Positions 20,228-39,567 of a DNA stretch of 51,591 nucleotides are shown one piece after another. Position 1 is the first letter of the stretch, and the number at the start of each line of letters is the position of its first letter. The DNA lies in IMG/VR virus record IMGVR_UViG_3300031951_000234, positions 1 through 51,591 of that record; one strand, given 5' to 3'. The notes under the pieces were generated by a model. It searched no databases. It had not been told where the DNA came from and was given only the letters and a program-made list of their open reading frames with translations. Both the position numbers and the translations under genes were made by a program. This DNA comes from a virus. Taxonomy: Duplodnaviria > Caudoviricetes.

Positions 20228-21085
20228 CTACCCCACCTTCGGAATGACATCCGGCGCCGCCTTCCCCTTGACCACGCGCGGGTCGAGGTAGCATCGCGTC
20301 GTCTGCGGGCTGGCGTGATCGAGGAGCCGCTGTGCCGACCCGCCTCCGGCCTCGTAGTATGAGGCGGTTGTTTTTCGGATCTTGTGGAACTTGTCCTTCC
20401 TCCCGGCGGGCAGCCCGGCACGCTTCAGGATGATCTCCAGCCGCTTCCAGAGGTATGAGCGGCCTCTGGGCCACGGGAAGACGAGGTCGTCAGGCCCGCG
20501 GTCGCCGCGGATGGCCGCAAGCGCCGCGGCCGTCGTCTCGCTGATCTCGCGGTATACGTCGGCTCGACGACCCTTGCGATCCTCGGCGATGAACAACACA
20601 GCGCCGCCCTTCACGGCCCGCCACCTGATGCTGACCATGGCAGTGCATCGCTCGCCAGTGTCGTAGGCGAGAAGCAGCAATGCCCGCCACCACAGGCCAC
20701 CCGGGATGCCGTCGAGCATCGTCTTCTCCTCCCCGGCCGTGACTAGGAGACGCTGAAACTCTTCAGTCAGCCAGCACTCCGGCACACGGCGGGGAACGCG
20801 AATCAACGGGATCGCCGGCCAAGTGTCCACCAGTTTCCGGCGAGCGGCGAACTCCCACAGCGCACGCAGTTGGCTGCGGTCTTTCGCCGCGGTCGCCGCA
20901 GCCCGCTGCCTGACGCGATGCGCCAGGAAGCGGGCCACGGTCACCTCCTCCAGATCGTCAAGAGTCGGCGGTCTGCCGAGGTACTTGGCGAACGGATTGA
21001 TCGTCATCTGGTAGATCGACCGCGTCCTATCACTCACGCCCTTCAACGGCGCGTACACGTCGTCAAGAAACTGTTGCAGTGTCAT
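20228..21085 (-). CDS. Tyrosine recombinase / integrase
   Basis: SAM-like N-domain; catalytic R (TGER), K (RKG), HxxR (HKIR), H (LDH), Y (TRCY). Confidence 0.9.
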   Translation of the reverse strand: MTLQQFLDDVYAPLKGVSDRTRSIYQMTINPFAKYLGRPPTLDDLEEVTVARFLAHRVRQRAAATAAKDRSQLRALWEFAARRKLVDTWPAIPLIRVPRRVPECWLTEEFQRLLVTAGEEKTMLDGIPGGLWWRALLLLAYDTGERCTAMVSIRWRAVKGGAVLFIAEDRKGRRADVYREISETTAAALAAIRGDRGPDDLVFPWPRGRSYLWKRLEIILKRAGLPAGRKDKFHKIRKTTASYYEAGGGSAQRLLDHASPQTTRCYLDPRVVKGKAAPDVIPKVG

Positions 21086-21122
21086 GGTGGCAAACCCCCA
21101 ACAAGGTGCCACCTCCATGCGT

Positions 21123-21326
21123 CTACGACACCCCCACGTCATGTGGCGGGCGACAAAAAATGTTCGTAATCCGACAGCGTGGATAGGTCATTCTGAACTT
21201 AGCGACCCAGATGGCGCGGGCCATCCTCTCTGCCTCCTTGGCAGACCTCGCCTGCACCACAAACTCGTCAGTGTCCTCCACGTCTCCGTCAATCCAATCA
21301 ATCAACGCGACCCATACCATCGTCAT
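21123..21326 (-). CDS. Hypothetical protein upstream of the integrase
   Basis: RBS AAGGAGG before ATG; 67 aa. Confidence 0.55.
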   Translation of the reverse strand: MTMVWVALIDWIDGDVEDTDEFVVQARSAKEAERMARAIWVAKFRMTYPRCRITNIFCRPPHDVGVS

Positions 21327-33457: not shown

Positions 33458-33745
33458 GTGCGCCGTCCCTCGGAGCGATCAATCGTCGCCAAGGGAATGG
33501 CAGAGGCGCGAAGACTGGGCTTCTTCGTCATCAAGATCCACGGCAATCAGTACCAGATGGCTGGGATACCGGACGTGCTGTGCATCAGGGACGGCCGCGC
33601 CCACTGGATTGAGTTCAAGCGTCCTGGCGAGGAACCGACGAGGCTTCAGGTGCATCGGATGCGGCAACTTGAGGGCGTCGGGTGCAGGACGACCGTCGCC
33701 TGCTCTGTGAGCGACGTGCGAACCTTCCTTGAGGGCGTGGCATGA
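33458..33745 (+). CDS. VRR-NUC domain nuclease
   Basis: E..I, GIPD, IEFKRPG....LQ motifs. Confidence 0.85.
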   Translation: MRRPSERSIVAKGMAEARRLGFFVIKIHGNQYQMAGIPDVLCIRDGRAHWIEFKRPGEEPTRLQVHRMRQLEGVGCRTTVACSVSDVRTFLEGVA

Positions 33746-34854
33746 TCCGCTGCGGCGAGCCACAGATCGGCGAGGCCGAGATCGCAGCCGTCACCGACGT
33801 GCTGCGGGCGGGGAACCTCACCCGCGGCGAGGAGTGCGAGCGGTTCGAGCGGGCGCTGGCCGAGCAGTTGAACGTCCGCGGCGTGCTGGCCGTCTCAAGC
33901 GGCACGGCGGCCCTGCACCTGGCCCTGCTGGCCGTCGGCGTCCAGCCCGGCGACGAGGTGATCATCCCGGCGACGACGTTCGTCGCCACGGCGAACGCGG
34001 TGCTCTACTGCCGCGCGAAGCCGGTGGTCGTGGACGTTGACAGCACGACGTGGACGATCGACGTGGGCCAGGCCATTCGGGCGATCACGAAGAAGACCAG
34101 GGCGATCGTCCCGGTGCATCTCTACGGCGTTCCGGCCGACGTGGGCGGCCTGCTGCTCGTCTGCGACGACCACTACGCCCGCACGGGCCGCCGGATTGCC
34201 ATCGTCGAGGATGCCGCCGAGGCGATTGGTGCGATGCACATGGGCCGAGAGGTCGGCGCCATCGGCGATGCGGCGGCCCTCTCGTTCTACGGCTCGAAGA
34301 CGATCACGACCGGAGAGGGCGGCGCTGTCATCTGGCACGACGGCCGCGTCGGTCTGCGGGCCTGGCATCTCCACGGCCAGGCGCAGTCCGCGACGAAGCG
34401 CTACTGGCACGAAGCGCTTGGATACAACTACCGCATGACGGAGATGCAGGCGGCCCTCGGCCGCGTGCAGTTGGAACGGCTCGAAGTGTTCCTCGAACAC
34501 CGCCGCCAGGTGTTCGCCTGGTACGACGAGATGCTTCCGCAGACGTTCAAGCGACAGGGCGTCGTCGAGAGCGACCGGCACGGCTGCTGGGCCTACGCCG
34601 TGGTCAAGGAGTACAGCGGCGAGATGAACGCGCAGAAGACGGCACTCGCGCTGCTGGAGGCCGGCATCGAGACGCGGCCGATCTTCTACCCGCTGTCGCG
34701 GTTCCCGCACTTGGCCGGAACCAGCAGCCGCGACCACTACGTCGCGCACAGACTGAACAAGCATGGCCTGGTGCTGCCAACGCACTGCGGCCTGACCCGA
34801 GAGGACGTTGAGAAGGTATGCCAAGAGTTAAGAAAAGCCGCGTGCTGTTCGTAG
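33742..34854 (+). CDS. DegT/DnrJ/EryC1/StrS PLP sugar aminotransferase (perosamine synthase-like)
   Basis: SSGTAALHLAL, PVHLYG, EDAAEA, SFYGSKTITTGEGG, GYNYRM. Confidence 0.93.
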   Translation: MIRCGEPQIGEAEIAAVTDVLRAGNLTRGEECERFERALAEQLNVRGVLAVSSGTAALHLALLAVGVQPGDEVIIPATTFVATANAVLYCRAKPVVVDVDSTTWTIDVGQAIRAITKKTRAIVPVHLYGVPADVGGLLLVCDDHYARTGRRIAIVEDAAEAIGAMHMGREVGAIGDAAALSFYGSKTITTGEGGAVIWHDGRVGLRAWHLHGQAQSATKRYWHEALGYNYRMTEMQAALGRVQLERLEVFLEHRRQVFAWYDEMLPQTFKRQGVVESDRHGCWAYAVVKEYSGEMNAQKTALALLEAGIETRPIFYPLSRFPHLAGTSSRDHYVAHRLNKHGLVLPTHCGLTREDVEKVCQELRKAACCS

Positions 34855-35690
34855 GCGGCGGCCGCCGCGTCGGGCTGGCGAGGCTGTTCATCGAGCGCGG
34901 CGCGGCGGTGTACGCCTACGAGTCGAGCATCGACCAGCCCATAGCCGACGTGGCGAAGGAGGTGCTCGTCGGGCTGGACTTCGATGACCCCCAATGTGGG
35001 GAAGATATTTCTGCGTTCGTGGAACGCAGAAATATCACCCACATCGTCCCGCTAATGGACGAGGCGACGGTGGTCTGCGGCGGCCTTCCTGGGTGCATCG
35101 GCCCGCCGGCCGACGTGGCGATGCTCTGCCACGACAAACTTCACTACGCCAATTGGATGAAGGAGCATCATCCAGACCTGTATCCGACGCCGTCGATGCT
35201 CCGGTATCCGAAGTTTGCGAAGCCCCGGTTCGGCCGCAGCGCGCGGGGGACGAAGATCCTGAACCGTCCAGAGACGATCGAGATGAGTTCGGCCTGGGTG
35301 ATACAGGACTACCTCGAAGGCGACGAGGTGTCGGTGGACGTGTTCCTCCGCGGCGGCGAGTGCCTGGGCGGCGTGGCCCGCAGCCGCGACCGCGTCGAGG
35401 GCGGGGAGGTGGTTGAATCCAGGGTACTCCCTGCCGAGCAGGGAGTACCGTTGATCCTCGACGCCGCCGCCGTCGCCACCGACCTTGGCATCGTCGGCCC
35501 GGCCAACGTGCAGTTCAGGGGCGGGAAGATCATGGAGGTCAACTGCCGCTTCGGAGGCGGGTGCGTGCTCTCCGTCGCCGCCGGCTTCGACATGGTCGCG
35601 CTGGCCTTGGGCCAGAAGACCAACGGGCCGCCGTGGACGGTGACGCACGGCATGACGATGCGTCGGTATCACGCGGAGAGTTTTCGATGA
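34818..35690 (+). CDS. ATP-grasp protein (CPS-like, polysaccharide-cluster type)
   Basis: GGGRRV, CHDK, KPRFG.SARG, IQDYLEG.EVSVD, EVNCRFGGG. Confidence 0.85.
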   Translation: MPRVKKSRVLFVGGGRRVGLARLFIERGAAVYAYESSIDQPIADVAKEVLVGLDFDDPQCGEDISAFVERRNITHIVPLMDEATVVCGGLPGCIGPPADVAMLCHDKLHYANWMKEHHPDLYPTPSMLRYPKFAKPRFGRSARGTKILNRPETIEMSSAWVIQDYLEGDEVSVDVFLRGGECLGGVARSRDRVEGGEVVESRVLPAEQGVPLILDAAAVATDLGIVGPANVQFRGGKIMEVNCRFGGGCVLSVAAGFDMVALALGQKTNGPPWTVTHGMTMRRYHAESFR

Positions 35691-35947
35691 GCGACGACAT
35701 CGTCAACAGGCTGCGTGACCGGGCCTACAGCGGCAAAGTTCCAGACAGCCTGTCCGATGAGGCGGCGGCCGAGATCGAGCGGCTGCGGTCGCTGACGCGG
35801 TTTCAGGATGGCGTCATTCGCAGCGGCGACGTGGCGTGCCTGACACAAGCGGAGCGTGAGGCGTTGGAGGTGGCGTCAGTATGGGTGAACCCAGAGAGGC
35901 ACGCCACCCTGCGCGGCCTGCTGGAGCGGCTGGGAGGCCACCAATGA
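35687..35947 (+). CDS. Hypothetical protein, LT.AEREA...ATLRGLLERL family
   Basis: MSDDIVNRLR..EAAAEIERLR; shared C-terminus with next gene. Confidence 0.65.
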   Translation: MSDDIVNRLRDRAYSGKVPDSLSDEAAAEIERLRSLTRFQDGVIRSGDVACLTQAEREALEVASVWVNPERHATLRGLLERLGGHQ

Positions 35948-36273
35948 CTGACCGCGACACGTTCGCCGCTGCGGCGCTGACGGGGCTTCTCGTCCACGCC
36001 AATGACAGCATTGACGAGGAGACTTTGGACACCCCAAGCGACATCGCGTACACGGCCTACCAGATGGCCGACGCCATGCTCCGCGAGCGCGACCGCACAA
36101 CTCATACGCCTGTAACGGAACCTATGCTCAAAGAAAAACGGACAGAGGGTTCTGCCGTCCTGACCGACGCGGAGCGGGAGGCGGTGCATCAGGCAGCGAT
36201 CCGGGTGGAAGCGTTGTGCCAGCGCGGATCGAAACACATGGCCGCCACCCTGCGCGGCCTGCTGGAGCGGCTG
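35902..36273 (+). repeat. 31-bp exact direct repeat (35902-35932 and 36243-36273)
   Basis: CGCCACCCTGCGCGGCCTGCTGGAGCGGCTG occurs twice, at the 3' ends of adjacent genes. Confidence 0.9.
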
Positions 36274-36291
36274 TCGCCGCCAGCGACATAA
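35944..36291 (+). CDS. Hypothetical protein, LT.AEREA...ATLRGLLERL family
   Basis: RDTFAAAALTGLL..AY.MADAML.ER; shared C-terminus. Confidence 0.65.
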   Translation: MTDRDTFAAAALTGLLVHANDSIDEETLDTPSDIAYTAYQMADAMLRERDRTTHTPVTEPMLKEKRTEGSAVLTDAEREAVHQAAIRVEALCQRGSKHMAATLRGLLERLSPPAT

Positions 36292-36454
36292 GGGACGAAC
36301 GTGTCGCAAAAACGACGAAGCGACGACAAAACACTACGCCAGCCCGCACCGGCTCCGCGCCCTACGGAGTGTTTTCGGGACGGCTGGCAGCCCCTAGGCG
36401 ACACGCAGCCCGACAACGGCTTGGCGACGATGGGACGGGGGCAGTGGTTTTTAC

Positions 36455-36544
36455 GCATAACACGCGAGATCAACAGCCGCGAACAAAGGAGGCGGCACAC
36501 ATGAACGATACGAATGAGCGGTCTGTTGCATCGGATGGTTCGCT
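36455..36544 (-). mobile_element. Integron attC site 1
   Basis: Minus strand: R'' AGCGAAC-5nt-L'' GATGCAAC-AG[A]CCGC...GCGG-CT-L' GTTGATC-6nt-R' GTTATGC; two extrahelical bases at canonical positions. Confidence 0.88.
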
Positions 36545-36920
36545 GGCGAACGCATTGCGGCCAGCGGTGTGGGCGATTCTTAGCGAAAATGGGCAGTATC
36601 GACTCCCCGAGATTGTTGGCGGAGCGAAGGTGTGCAAGTTTTATGGCAATGACAGATACGTTCCGCTGTACGCCGAAGAGACGTTGAACCCTGTGTTGAG
36701 GATTGCGAATGCGTGCGGGAAGTGGATTCAGGTGAGCGAGCGGCTGCCCGAAGACGGCACATGGTGCTGGGTCGATTGGGACGGCCCAGGCGAGCCGTTC
36801 CCAGCGATGCGATGCAGTAGGTCGGCTGGCGGGTGGACGAACACCGACTGCTGGGAAGACTTCGACAGAGAGGTCACGCGCTGGATGCCGCTCCCTGCAC
36901 CACCAATAGACGCCAAGTAG
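36501..36920 (+). CDS. Cassette gene A: DUF551-like protein
   Basis: WIQVSERLPE ... VTRWMPLPAPP; RBS AAGGAGG and ATG lie inside attC1. Confidence 0.8.
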   Translation: MNDTNERSVASDGSLANALRPAVWAILSENGQYRLPEIVGGAKVCKFYGNDRYVPLYAEETLNPVLRIANACGKWIQVSERLPEDGTWCWVDWDGPGEPFPAMRCSRSAGGWTNTDCWEDFDREVTRWMPLPAPPIDAK

Positions 36921-36922
36921 CC

Positions 36923-37013
36923 AGCGAACGCCCGCGATCACCAGCGGCGAACACAGGAGCATGAACATGACACAGGAATCGAATAAGCCGTCTGGTGCAT
37001 CCGGTGGTTATGA
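36923..37013 (-). mobile_element. Integron attC site 2
   Basis: Minus: TCATAAC-CACCG-GATGCACC-AG[A]CGGC...GCCG-CT-GGTGATC-GCGGGC-GTTCGCT. Confidence 0.88.
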
Positions 37014-37188
37014 GCGCGGTCGGATTTGCCCTGTCCCGCCAGATGACCCCGTTGGCCCGTTTGTCGCAGCAATGATCCTTATCCCGCTCGTTGTCTGCTC
37101 GCTGGTTTTTGCCGCGACGGCATTCGGCAACCTGATGGCCTACGGACAGTTTTGCACGCCGCAGCACGGCGTCGTTGAGAAGCCATAA
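36961..37188 (+). CDS. Cassette gene B: small membrane protein
   Basis: RBS AGGAG and ATG inside attC2; hydrophobic segment; stop TAA inside the attC3 core box. Confidence 0.7.
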   Translation: MNMTQESNKPSGASGGYERGRICPVPPDDPVGPFVAAMILIPLVVCSLVFAATAFGNLMAYGQFCTPQHGVVEKP

Positions 37189-37270
37189 CACGCAGGATCA
37201 GCGGCTCGCGACCGCTGACGAAACTACACCGCAGACGGAATCGCGAGTCCGCTGCATCCGCTGGTTCGCA
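37183..37270 (-). mobile_element. Integron attC site 3
   Basis: Minus: TGCGAAC-CAGCG-GATGCAGC-GG[A]CTCGCGA...TCGCGAG-CC-GCTGATC-CTGCGT-GTTATGG. Confidence 0.88.
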
Positions 37271-37273
37271 CAG

Positions 37274-37636
37274 ATGCCATGCAACTCAGACCATCTTGAG
37301 GCGACCCACCTTGAGGCCGAGATGAGCAAGGTCGCTTGCCTGCTGGACGAACTTGACGGAAAGAAGCGAATAAATCGCGACCACTGGCGCGGCTACCACC
37401 CTCGCGTCTACAGTCAGCGGGTGAACGCCGACGAAATGACGGCCGAACTATGCTCGCGCCTTCAGGGCGTGAACGTTTCACAGTGCAGCCTTGAGATGCA
37501 GATTTGGTGGCGCGACCATCAAGAGGCAGACAAGAGGCGAGCCGAGAAAGCGATCAAGAAGGCCAAGACCGAGAAGCAGAAAAAAGCGGCACTCGCGAAA
37601 CTGACTCAGCATGAGCGGAAACTGTTGGGGCTTTGA
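37274..37636 (+). CDS. Cassette gene C: hypothetical protein
   Basis: MPCNSDHL..LC..L..WWRDHQEAD..ALAKLT..ERKLLGL; ATG 3 nt after attC3. Confidence 0.75.
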   Translation: MPCNSDHLEATHLEAEMSKVACLLDELDGKKRINRDHWRGYHPRVYSQRVNADEMTAELCSRLQGVNVSQCSLEMQIWWRDHQEADKRRAEKAIKKAKTEKQKKAALAKLTQHERKLLGL

Positions 37637-37642
37637 TGGGAT

Positions 37643-37685
37643 TGCGAACCAGAATTAGTCCGCCAGTTCGCAGCCTAATTCGGAC
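37643..37685 (-). mobile_element. attI-like / secondary cassette insertion site
   Basis: Core GTTCGCA (minus) exactly complementary to attC3 R''; not followed by an attC fold; nested short inverted repeats. Confidence 0.55.
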
Positions 37686-37736
37686 GAAGGTGCGGCTTTC
37701 GGCCGCAAGAACGATGCGACGGCGGGGAAACAGGAA

Positions 37737-37880
37737 ATGACCACCATCCGCGAGTGGCTGATCGACCTGGCGTTTCTGCGCATCGGCATCGTGCCGCTCG
37801 TGGGCGTAGTGTTGTGTGTCGGCATGATTGTCGGCCTGTGCATCGCAGCCGTGCGGTGCCAGCCGCCGGAGGATTTATGA
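37737..37880 (+). CDS. Small membrane protein (47 aa)
   Basis: MTTIREWLIDLAFLRIGIVPLVGVVLCVGMIVGLC; RBS CAGGA. Confidence 0.55.
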   Translation: MTTIREWLIDLAFLRIGIVPLVGVVLCVGMIVGLCIAAVRCQPPEDL

Positions 37881-38020
37881 GCACCCCGCTGATCCTCATC
37901 GTCGGCGTCGTCTACCTAGCGGTGGCCGTCGATCAGTTCCGCAAAGGCGACACCGGCATGGCGATCGCATGGTTCGGCTACGCCCTGGCAAACGTGGGCC
38001 TCGCTATGGTGGCAAAATGA
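37877..38020 (+). CDS. Small membrane protein (47 aa)
   Basis: LI..VG.VYL.V..DQF.KG..GM...WFGYALANVGL. Confidence 0.65.
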   Translation: MSTPLILIVGVVYLAVAVDQFRKGDTGMAIAWFGYALANVGLAMVAK

Positions 38021-38319
38021 AGACCGCGGTCGTGGATCTCGACGGCGTCCTGGCCGAGGAGCGGCCGGCGTTCGAGCACGCGCTGGCCGAGCCGCTGCCG
38101 GGGGCCGCCGAAGGCTTGAGGACGCTCAAGAGGCTGGGCTACCACGTCGTGATTCACACCGCCCGAGGATGGGGCGAGTACGCGATCACGACGCACTGGC
38201 TACAGGCGCACAGTATGGAGTATGATCTGCTGATCTGTGGCAAGCCGATCGCCGACATCGTCATCGACGACCGTGCCATTCGATTCCGGGGCTGGGAGGC
38301 TCTCACTGATGCCATCTGA
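38017..38319 (+). CDS. HAD-superfamily phosphatase (capsule-biosynthesis type)
   Basis: DLDGVL, HTARG, GKP.AD..IDDRA. Confidence 0.85.
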   Translation: MKTAVVDLDGVLAEERPAFEHALAEPLPGAAEGLRTLKRLGYHVVIHTARGWGEYAITTHWLQAHSMEYDLLICGKPIADIVIDDRAIRFRGWEALTDAI

Positions 38320-38848
38320 CACGGTTATTCGCCTGCGCCATCTGGTACACACATTCCTCCATCGCGACGTGCTGCCGTCGATCACGCAGGGCGATGCCGT
38401 GCTGGAGATCGGGCCGATGCACGCTGGGTCATGCCCGGTGCCAGAAGCCTTCGTGGACACGAAGGCCGCGGTGCTGGCGGCCGGCGGCGGATACACGTCG
38501 TGCGACCCAGACCCGGCGGCCGGCGCGACGATCTGTGCCGACTTCTTGGAGCCAACTGCGTTCTACGGCAACGAGCAGTTCGATCACATCGTCGCCTGCG
38601 AGGTGTTCGAGCACGTCCCGCGGGTGTGGGACGCGCCGGCCGTCCTGGCCGGGCTGCTCAAGCCCGGCGGCGTGCTCTGGCTCTCGACGCCGTTCATGTT
38701 TGAGAAGCACGGGCCGGCGCCTGACTGCTGGCGGTTCACCGACGACGGGCTGCGGGCGTTGTTCGGCAGGCACTTCTTCTTGGACGTGTGGGCCAGCGAC
38801 GGCCACGCCGAGCCGCTGCACTACTGTGCGAGGGCGGTGAAGCGATGA
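38309..38848 (+). CDS. Class I SAM-dependent methyltransferase
   Basis: VLEIGP, FD.IVACEVFEHV, LKPGG.L.LSTPF, DCWRFT. Confidence 0.88.
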   Translation: MPSDTVIRLRHLVHTFLHRDVLPSITQGDAVLEIGPMHAGSCPVPEAFVDTKAAVLAAGGGYTSCDPDPAAGATICADFLEPTAFYGNEQFDHIVACEVFEHVPRVWDAPAVLAGLLKPGGVLWLSTPFMFEKHGPAPDCWRFTDDGLRALFGRHFFLDVWASDGHAEPLHYCARAVKR

Positions 38849-39567
38849 GCATCATCTGCTGTTCCATGTGGTACGCCGACGCCGGAAAGCACATCGTCGA
38901 TCGCGTCCTGCACCTGTTCGGCAAGTCGGGCGTCGATCGGTGGATGTTCTCCGTCAGGCCGTCGAAGGACTGGACGCAGCACTTCCTGTCGCAACTGGCC
39001 GCTATGGCCGGCAAGGGCTGCGATGTGCTGCTTGAGGACTGGACGCAGCCGGAGGCCAGGATCGAGAGGCTGTCGCTGGCCGGTGACAACCTCCTGCAAG
39101 AGGCTGCCGAGACGGACTGCAAATATGTGCTGTGGCATGAGTCGGACTTGTTCTCACCGGACGACATCGTTGATCGCCTGAAGGCGGTCGATGGCGCAGC
39201 CGTTGGTGGCTGGCCGGTGCTGTCGCACTGCCCGTCCGCGCCGCAACTGGGCATCCACACGCGAAAGCGACTGACGCTAACCGAGTCGATGTTCTACGAC
39301 ACCTGGGGGTATCGGAAGGACGGCGTCCGCTTTGGCAACAAGCCACCACATCACGACTGCCACCTCCCAGGCGAGCCGTACCAGTTGGATAGCGTCGGCA
39401 GCGTGGTGCTGCTGCGAGCCGACTATCTGCGGCGCGGCGCACGCATGAACGGCAACGGCCTGGTCGGCCTCTGTGACAGCATCCGCGGCATGGGTGGCAC
39501 CGTGTGGTGCGACCCCCGAGTGCCGGTCGTGCAACCCCTTGAACTCTGGACTATGAACGATGACTAG
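38845..39567 (+). CDS. GT-A fold glycosyltransferase-like protein (Anp1/GT62-like)
   Basis: YVLWHESD, FYDTWGYR, LDSVGSVVL motifs. Confidence 0.6.
   Translation: MSIICCSMWYADAGKHIVDRVLHLFGKSGVDRWMFSVRPSKDWTQHFLSQLAAMAGKGCDVLLEDWTQPEARIERLSLAGDNLLQEAAETDCKYVLWHESDLFSPDDIVDRLKAVDGAAVGGWPVLSHCPSAPQLGIHTRKRLTLTESMFYDTWGYRKDGVRFGNKPPHHDCHLPGEPYQLDSVGSVVLLRADYLRRGARMNGNGLVGLCDSIRGMGGTVWCDPRVPVVQPLELWTMNDD

Follow-up and report, generated by a model that had tools for sequence, protein, structure and literature searches.

Why does the genome of a tailed phage carry three imperfect palindromes of 88–91 nt, one before each of three small genes? The question is raised by positions 36455–37649 of the uncultured-virus record IMGVR_UViG_3300031951_000234, which was analysed in full (51.6 kb, completeness estimated at 91%; hereafter, the window), and we refer to the palindromes as sites E1–E3 and to the genes behind them as A–C. 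We conclude that this 1.2-kb stretch is very probably an array of three integron-type gene cassettes without an integrase of its own, that is, a cluster of attC sites lacking integron integrases (CALIN). The conclusion is carried by site architecture, homology to integron attC sites, polarity, complementary cassette ends and exchange breakpoints at AAC, each of which is established by the comparisons that follow. An attC site is single-stranded DNA folding into an imperfect hairpin, with an R box, an unpaired spacer, an L box with two bulges and a variable loop.

The three sites span 816 nt, with E1 at 36455–36544 (R box GCATAAC/GTTCGCT), E2 at 36923–37013 (AGCGAAC/GTTATGA) and E3 at 37183–37270 (CCATAAC/GTTCGCA), all three on the plus strand, which is the bottom strand of the site in attC terms (see below). 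They have in common a left arm of the form AAC-N5-(N)GATCA-N-C-N-GC and a right arm of the form G-(T)-C-N-G-N-TG-(C)-ATC-N5-GTT. Their two bulged bases lie on the plus-strand arm facing AAC, at positions 16 and 23 from the plus-strand 3′ end; the extrahelical bases of attC-aadA7 are named G16 and T23 (Nivina et al. 2016), in a numbering that we take to run in the same direction as our count. The loop of E1 contains AGGAGG and the ATG of gene A, the loop of E2 contains AGGAG and the ATG of gene B, and E3 is a long-stem form with no start codon within it. Exactly three copies are present in the window (two motif scans, with three exact matches each); the other matches of these scans carry two or three mismatches and occur at about the chance rate.

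The same element recurs across a large set of phages. Viral contigs were scanned with a degenerate 20-nt pattern taken from the 3′ arm, which matched at least 118 contigs of uncultured phages, many of them several times, and a stricter regular expression demanding both the AAC and the GTT triplets yielded 144 unique full elements. These fall into about seven loop types, with outer AAC and GTT triplets around the stem GATCA-N-C-N-GC/G(T)C-N-G-N-TG(C)ATC. The spacer measures 5 nt and 4 nt on its two arms and is unpaired and non-conserved, loops range from 5 to about 45 nt, and whole elements span 49–104 nt, short forms of 49–56 nt included. Across the 125 elements that were aligned, AAC and GTT never vary (125 of 125, as the selecting expression required), and the inner, L-box helix is 96.1% paired, with covariation at pairs 19/74, 21/72, 24/68 and 13/81 and a covariation score of 0.237, compared with 0.090 in shuffles (0 of 500 reaching the observed score) and at most 0.082 when partners were slid. 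Both bulges are always on one strand, a T (column 70) and a C (column 77) in the 3′ arm of the strand with the 5′ AAC. A covariance model built on this alignment (R1) gave 272 matches in 100 viral loci, and one-strand phage arrays reach 14 sites (locus L076), with 10 in L032 and L074 and 9 in L042.

In the window, searched with R1 at E values up to 10, the only matches were E1 (73.7 bits, E = 6.5 × 10−20), E2 (68.3 bits, E = 2.9 × 10−18) and E3 (66.3 bits), with both triplets aligned in each, upholding to the base the positions that an earlier, sequence-only reading of this DNA had given for the three palindromes. Folding energy is significant for E3 (z = −4.57) and not for E1 (z = −0.23) or E2 (z = +0.21). 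Because the folding energies of E1 and E2 are not significant, the structural support comes from covariation and not from energy. Rfam 15 returned no match (the window at the gathering threshold, and 35800–38200 at E ≤ 10), attC included, a negative of little weight.

Sites of the same family also stand in bacterial integrons. A pattern scan of genome contigs gave at least 120 bacterial loci (L121–L240); among the matches listed, from 120 loci, 15 loci held at least one full element by the regular expression (21 elements), and the remainder look like chance. R1 gave 105 matches (E ≤ 0.1) in 30 bacterial loci, in long same-strand arrays of Planctomycetota and betaproteobacterial metagenome-assembled genomes (MAGs). 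Five of the array-bearing genomes were searched with the integron integrase model TIGR02249 (cut-off 265 bits). In the first case, G005:C5, a full-length intI of 326 amino acids (478.8 bits, minus strand) is followed by a plus-strand gene, a minus-strand site, a plus-strand gene and a minus-strand site, and a site at this locus carries textbook boxes, GCCCAAC/GTTGGGC (a full fit to the consensus), around an L box of the phage type. In the planctomycetotal G001:C71, the contig ends in the N-terminal part of an intI, which follows 12 sites and is oriented relative to them as in G005:C5, and in G004:C48 an intI in two frames adjoins seven sites. These neighbours support the assignment of the E1–E3 family to attC-type sites, homologous to those beside bona fide intI genes.

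Two features of the bacterial arrays deserve separate mention. At G004:C48 (7714–8546, locus L251; a Pirellulales array), the two intI frames cover model positions 129–315 and 1–96 and are co-directional with the cassette genes, such that this integron may be frameshifted or of a reverse type. In two Planctomycetota MAG arrays (L205 and L237), some attC sites have GGA...ATG on the bottom strand (MPTDFIASPLH...), like one phage loop type, and because of these sites the coding leader may be older than its phage version. An R1 search of five integron-bearing MAGs, with 150 candidates scored per genome, returned array-type matches only and no phage-type copies.

The orientation of genes relative to sites separates the phage arrays from the bacterial ones. 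The strand matched by R1 is the attC bottom strand, as fixed by the layouts of intI and array in the three cases above. The published rule gives the same strand: extrahelical bases lie on the bottom-strand arm opposite AAC, and the triplet is cleaved at AA|C (Nivina et al. 2016), and the bulges opposite AAC therefore define the bottom strand here. In bacteria, 55 of 67 intervals (13 arrays) have their longest open reading frame (ORF) opposite to the model strand, as in ordinary cassettes, whereas 141 of the 144 unique phage elements have a gene on the same strand. More than that, 98 of the 144 phage hairpins enclose an ATG opening an ORF that exits via the 3′ arm, which codes a recurring peptide ending S-x-A-S-x-G-S; a further 43 are followed by a same-strand ORF start within 60 nt after GTT, and three have neither. 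On the upstream side, a same-strand stop codon lies 1–16 nt before the AAC end in 135 of 144.

In the window, all three ORFs are likewise on the bottom strand with their attC upstream, in place of the canonical layout of a top-strand ORF and then attC, and for genes A and B the hairpin (loop plus 3′ arm) supplies the Shine–Dalgarno sequence, the ATG and some 13 initial codons. Because the strand that recombines, the bottom one, is also the sense strand of the genes, these genes are inverted relative to ordinary cassettes, and each attC precedes its gene. A captured and flipped piece of a bacterial array was considered and ruled out, as its genes would remain on the top strand; the phage cassettes are themselves built in reverse.

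With every AAC cut at AA|C, the cassettes occupy, on the plus strand, 36461–36928 (cassette A, 468 nt), 36929–37188 (cassette B, 260 nt) and 37189–37648 (cassette C, 460 nt). The first consists of E1 and gene A (36501–36920; DUF551, E = 9.6 × 10−9), the second of E2 and gene B (36961–37188; a 75-amino-acid hydrophobic product with no family match) and the third of E3 and gene C (37274–37636; phrog_11759, E = 1.9 × 10−30), with all three genes on the plus strand. Their ends are complementary across the gene: GTTCGCTGGC (36538–36547) matches GCCAGCGAAC (36920–36929) at 10 of 10 positions around gene A, GTTATGA (37007–37013) matches CCATAAC (37183–37189) at 6 of 7 around gene B, and GTTCGCA (37264–37270) matches TGCGAAC (37643–37649) at 7 of 7 around gene C. 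Among the fetched loci, tblastn found homologues of gene A in 18 viral loci and in the phage-like locus L209, and of gene C in 3 viral loci. The sequence-only reading had asserted all of these points, namely box matches across genes and not within palindromes, attC-type sites, cassette limits at AA|C, phage-type cargo and genes running with the phage operon and opposite to ordinary cassettes, and the comparisons here sustain them.

Cross-gene complementarity is a property of the family. When the 3′ box of each site was compared with the 5′ box of the site after it (64 adjacent pairs), complementarity extended beyond the triplet by a mean of 3.92 nt, compared with 1.64 nt when a site's own boxes were set against each other and 1.58 nt for random pairs; complementarity of at least 4 nt occurs in 61%, 20% and 11% of these comparisons, respectively. 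The hairpin moves with the gene downstream of it (33 pairs with similar downstream and different upstream genes, mean hairpin identity 0.89) and does not move with the gene upstream (8 pairs, identity 0.65, against a background of 0.66). Where the upstream gene is common and the downstream gene differs, similarity ends exactly at the 5′ AAC in seven of eight pairs.

Exchange at the same points is seen for the window's own cassettes, and the expectation of the sequence-only reading that related phages would differ in cassette content was supported. Cassette C recurs in locus L113 with 94.8% identity over window positions 37187–37649 (from AAC to GCGAAC), between flanks that are both unrelated. 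Four metagenome runs were also examined as contigs, placed at 90% likeness. The summed contig depth at hairpins was 20–100 times that of cassette bodies in these runs, and the hairpin sites are therefore common to many other molecules. A contig of run X2 joins 36923 to 37644, skipping cassettes B and C exactly (720 nt), with a joint ambiguity of six letters (GCGAAC). A contig of run X8 is identical to the window over 37646–37793 and has another cassette end (...GTAGCCACA) ahead of GAAC, with the switch at GAAC. Because contigs were placed at 90% likeness, the X2 and X8 contigs lend moderate support only. Most other metagenome joints were disregarded as repeat-driven, with short sides (19–27 nt) at repeated hairpins.

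In terms of class, three attC-type sites stand in series in a 51.6-kb record with no intI, which is the composition of a CALIN. A complete integron it is not, as intI is absent from the window and from 42 related records, and the phage arrays have no recognisable attI or cassette promoter (Pc). Because the phage records hold no integron integrase, the phage arrays are CALINs and the enzyme must come from elsewhere, its source being most simply a host integron that would act in trans. At the right-hand end of the array (37643–37700, plus strand), TGCGAAC is followed by a unique stretch, which would be the attI-side end if read on the top (minus) strand. This stretch holds the inverted repeats GAATTAG/CTAATTC and GCGAAC/GTTCGC, its sequence at 37653–37680 was found only in the window and was absent from 250 other fetched loci, and it may be a candidate docking (attI-like) site.

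Which enzyme acts, when it acts and the present-day activity of the sites we infer as follows. A host integron integrase, typically induced by DNA damage, as prophages are, would cut replicating phage DNA on its folded bottom strands, at AA|C of the 5′ triplet, freeing circular cassettes composed of hairpin, gene and R box. Such circles would insert at attC sites of other phage arrays with their polarity kept, and small accessory genes would thereby be shuffled among unrelated phages, co-oriented with the phage operon that transcribes them. Because insertion would preserve polarity, cassettes would stay co-oriented with the operon and bring their own translation start. A wider proposal, which we regard as evenly poised, is that freshwater phages of Planctomycetota and/or Betaproteobacteria keep a ‘reverse’ cassette pool of their own, borrow the damage-induced integrase of their hosts and trade genes among unrelated phages, with attC as a portable translation start (Shine–Dalgarno sequence, ATG and leader codons) through which any inserted cassette would be expressed from the phage operon. 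On this proposal, polarity would also keep the phage and host pools functionally separate, since a phage cassette that reached a host integron would point away from Pc.

Several observations weigh against the reading of this stretch as an integron-type array served by a host enzyme. There was no TIGR02249 match in the window at E ≤ 0.01, and no IntI match at E ≤ 10−5 in any of 42 related phage records (31–204 kb, of which 12 are at least 90% complete). The bulge closest to the R box is a C in the phage sites and a G in the sites treated by Nivina et al. (2016). Outside AAC/GTT, the phage R boxes are mostly off the RYYYAAC/GTTRRRY consensus, with GCATAAC fitting at three of the four degenerate positions and AGCGAAC and CCATAAC at two of four each; the AAC triplet alone is conserved in all attC sites according to Nivina et al. 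(2016). Fewer than four complementary nucleotides were found in 25 of the 64 adjacent pairs, many of them with long gaps that perhaps hide undetected sites. Some exchanges break at the 3′ GTT instead of the AAC (L018/L068, L023/L056 and L004/L035), a minority that fits occasional top-strand recombination and is equally compatible with other recombination. The X2 joint, at 90% likeness and with a shorter side of 41 nt, could reflect a relative rather than an excision. As for the host, there is no tRNA in the window from which to infer it, and blastn of 35800–38200 against a phage collection gave no match. Finally, genes A and C had no homologue in the fetched bacterial MAG arrays, a sample too small to argue against exchange, except in the phage-like L209; on the same result, the phage and bacterial cassette pools may be separate.

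Three other explanations each account for part of these data. Shuffling by homologous recombination has been proposed for the promoter–stem-loop cassettes of T4-type phages, and the hairpins here could similarly be relic attC sites that no longer undergo site-specific recombination, are kept as translation-initiation leaders and are shuffled by homologous recombination with one another. The lack of an integron integrase in all 43 phage records fits this explanation, as do the three exchanges at the 3′ GTT, and homology is ample, given that 444 hairpin pairs are at least 90% identical and only 4% of these have a common downstream gene. Homologous recombination, however, would be expected to cross over inside the arms, whereas the breakpoints fall at a 3-nt AAC beside a non-conserved 5-nt spacer with no outer homology. 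Cassette ends complementary over 4–10 nt are explained only by a folded or circular intermediate, and the bulges and stem covariation are kept even in forms without an internal ORF. On this evidence, we consider relic sites unlikely.

We give still less credence to recombination by a phage-encoded enzyme in place of a host IntI. The window does encode a tyrosine recombinase, its only one (20228–21142, minus strand; PF00589, E = 4.7 × 10−13; phrog_1 integrase), and an unrecognised protein could also be invoked, as a family of small genes ending ...LRGLLERL often lies directly ahead of the arrays. However, the integrase is 15 kb away and generic, with no TIGR02249 match and no IntI signature, and its product belongs with ordinary phage integrases rather than integron integrases. 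Moreover, the arrays occur in phages of 31 to 204 kb, and their sites are in common with bacterial arrays served by IntI, which makes this explanation very unlikely.

It is scarcely credible that the elements are primarily RNA structures of a polycistronic mRNA (a translational operator or processing site) with an incidental likeness to attC, for although 141 of the 144 are on the sense strand, 98 of 144 enclose a Shine–Dalgarno sequence and AUG, and the 3′ arm codes the recurring S-x-A-S-x-G-S-ending peptide, the family is antisense to genes in bacterial arrays beside intI, 43 of 144 have no internal start codon, short 49–56-nt forms exist, the frame through the E3 arm differs from the peptide frame, complementarity of ends spanning a whole gene has no RNA rationale and no Rfam family matched. 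An additional role at the RNA level is possible. None of the three accounts jointly for the cross-gene end complementarity, the AAC-exact breakpoints and the homology to IntI-served sites.

Elsewhere, the record has genes for tail fibre, head closure, helicase, exonuclease and integrase. Genes A, B and C sit on the plus strand inside a split block of sugar-modification genes, and this cluster (33742–35690 and 38017–39567, interrupted by the array) encodes a DegT-type aminotransferase, an ATP-grasp enzyme, a HAD phosphatase, a methyltransferase and others. Between its left part and the array are two small paralogous genes (35687–35947 and 35944–36291) with an exact 31-nt repeat in common (35902–35932 and 36243–36273) that codes ...ATLRGLLERL. 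The LLERL gene family ends immediately ahead of the first hairpin in many phage arrays, and a homologue is a cassette gene in L040. ‘Half elements’, composed of the 3′ arm and leader codons with no 5′ arm, come straight after an LLERL-family gene in L012 (about 2440–2500) and L043 (minus strand, about 433 on the reverse complement), and perhaps represent decayed or fused sites.

Small contigs with phage-type sites are binned in a Planctomycetia MAG (L182) and in an unclassified MAG (L209), and a host call from them was judged too weak and left unused. The latter, a 3.3-kb contig with nine R1 matches in 3.2 kb (top score 90.7 bits) and genes on the site strand, is an array of phage type that has been binned with a bacterial MAG.

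Phage genomes are mosaic, and the movement of small genes between unrelated phages is mostly ascribed to homologous or illegitimate recombination, and the array in this window points to a defined site-specific mechanism, integron recombination on phage DNA with exact cut points. If true, this would be a previously undescribed site-specific route to phage genome mosaicism, and it would bear on how attC sites become attached to genes, on the reasons for the tight control of cassette orientation and on gene exchange between phages and chromosomal integrons. An attC site that doubles as ribosome-binding site, start codon and N terminus would indicate that coding on the bottom strand is tolerated, which is relevant to engineering tools. 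The cargo of small phage genes without assigned function also forms a candidate list for host-takeover or anti-defence genes.

Phage-borne attC clusters as such have already been published: Qi et al. (2023, PMC9892861) reported 17 CALINs in phages and found that IntI1 recombined attI1 with five of the six phage attC sites tested. Those CALINs, like the array described here, are intI-less attC clusters inside phage genomes. The arrays highlighted in section 3.4 of that paper are described as having the typical bacterial orientation, with one phage carrying divergent sites, and the section mentions no coherent family of more than 100 phage contigs, no uniform placement of genes on the bottom strand and no start codons within the site, all of which mark the present case. 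No account of phage-wide inverted cassettes with start codons inside attC was found in the literature searched, where the supplementary tables of PMC9892861 may list cases, and the combination of inverted polarity and a start codon within the site appears to be new.

The closest relatives by sequence are the sedentary chromosomal integrons of Planctomycetota and betaproteobacterial MAGs (for example, G005:C5), whose sites belong to the same family, CGATCAGCGGC...G(T)CCGCTG(C)ATCG. The likeness extends to the R box triplets, the spacer, the two bottom-strand bulges, the variable loop, the one-strand arrays and the complementary ends. In contrast to those integrons, the phage arrays lack intI and any recognisable attI or Pc, their genes are on the bottom strand with attC ahead of the gene and the gene start often within it, the cargo is of phage type and the R boxes depart from RYYYAAC. 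Inverted cassettes are also found in chromosomal integrons, where they mostly encode toxin–antitoxin systems and carry their own promoters. A few cassettes have promoters, and a cassette is inverted when its top strand recombines (Nivina et al. 2016). The phage cassettes resemble these inverted ones in having an ORF antisense to the usual cassette direction; however, the chromosomal cases are a minority within normal arrays and have promoters of their own, whereas here inversion affects the entire array and, beyond it, the phage family as a whole, and expression presumably comes from the phage operon, with attC serving as the translation-initiation region.

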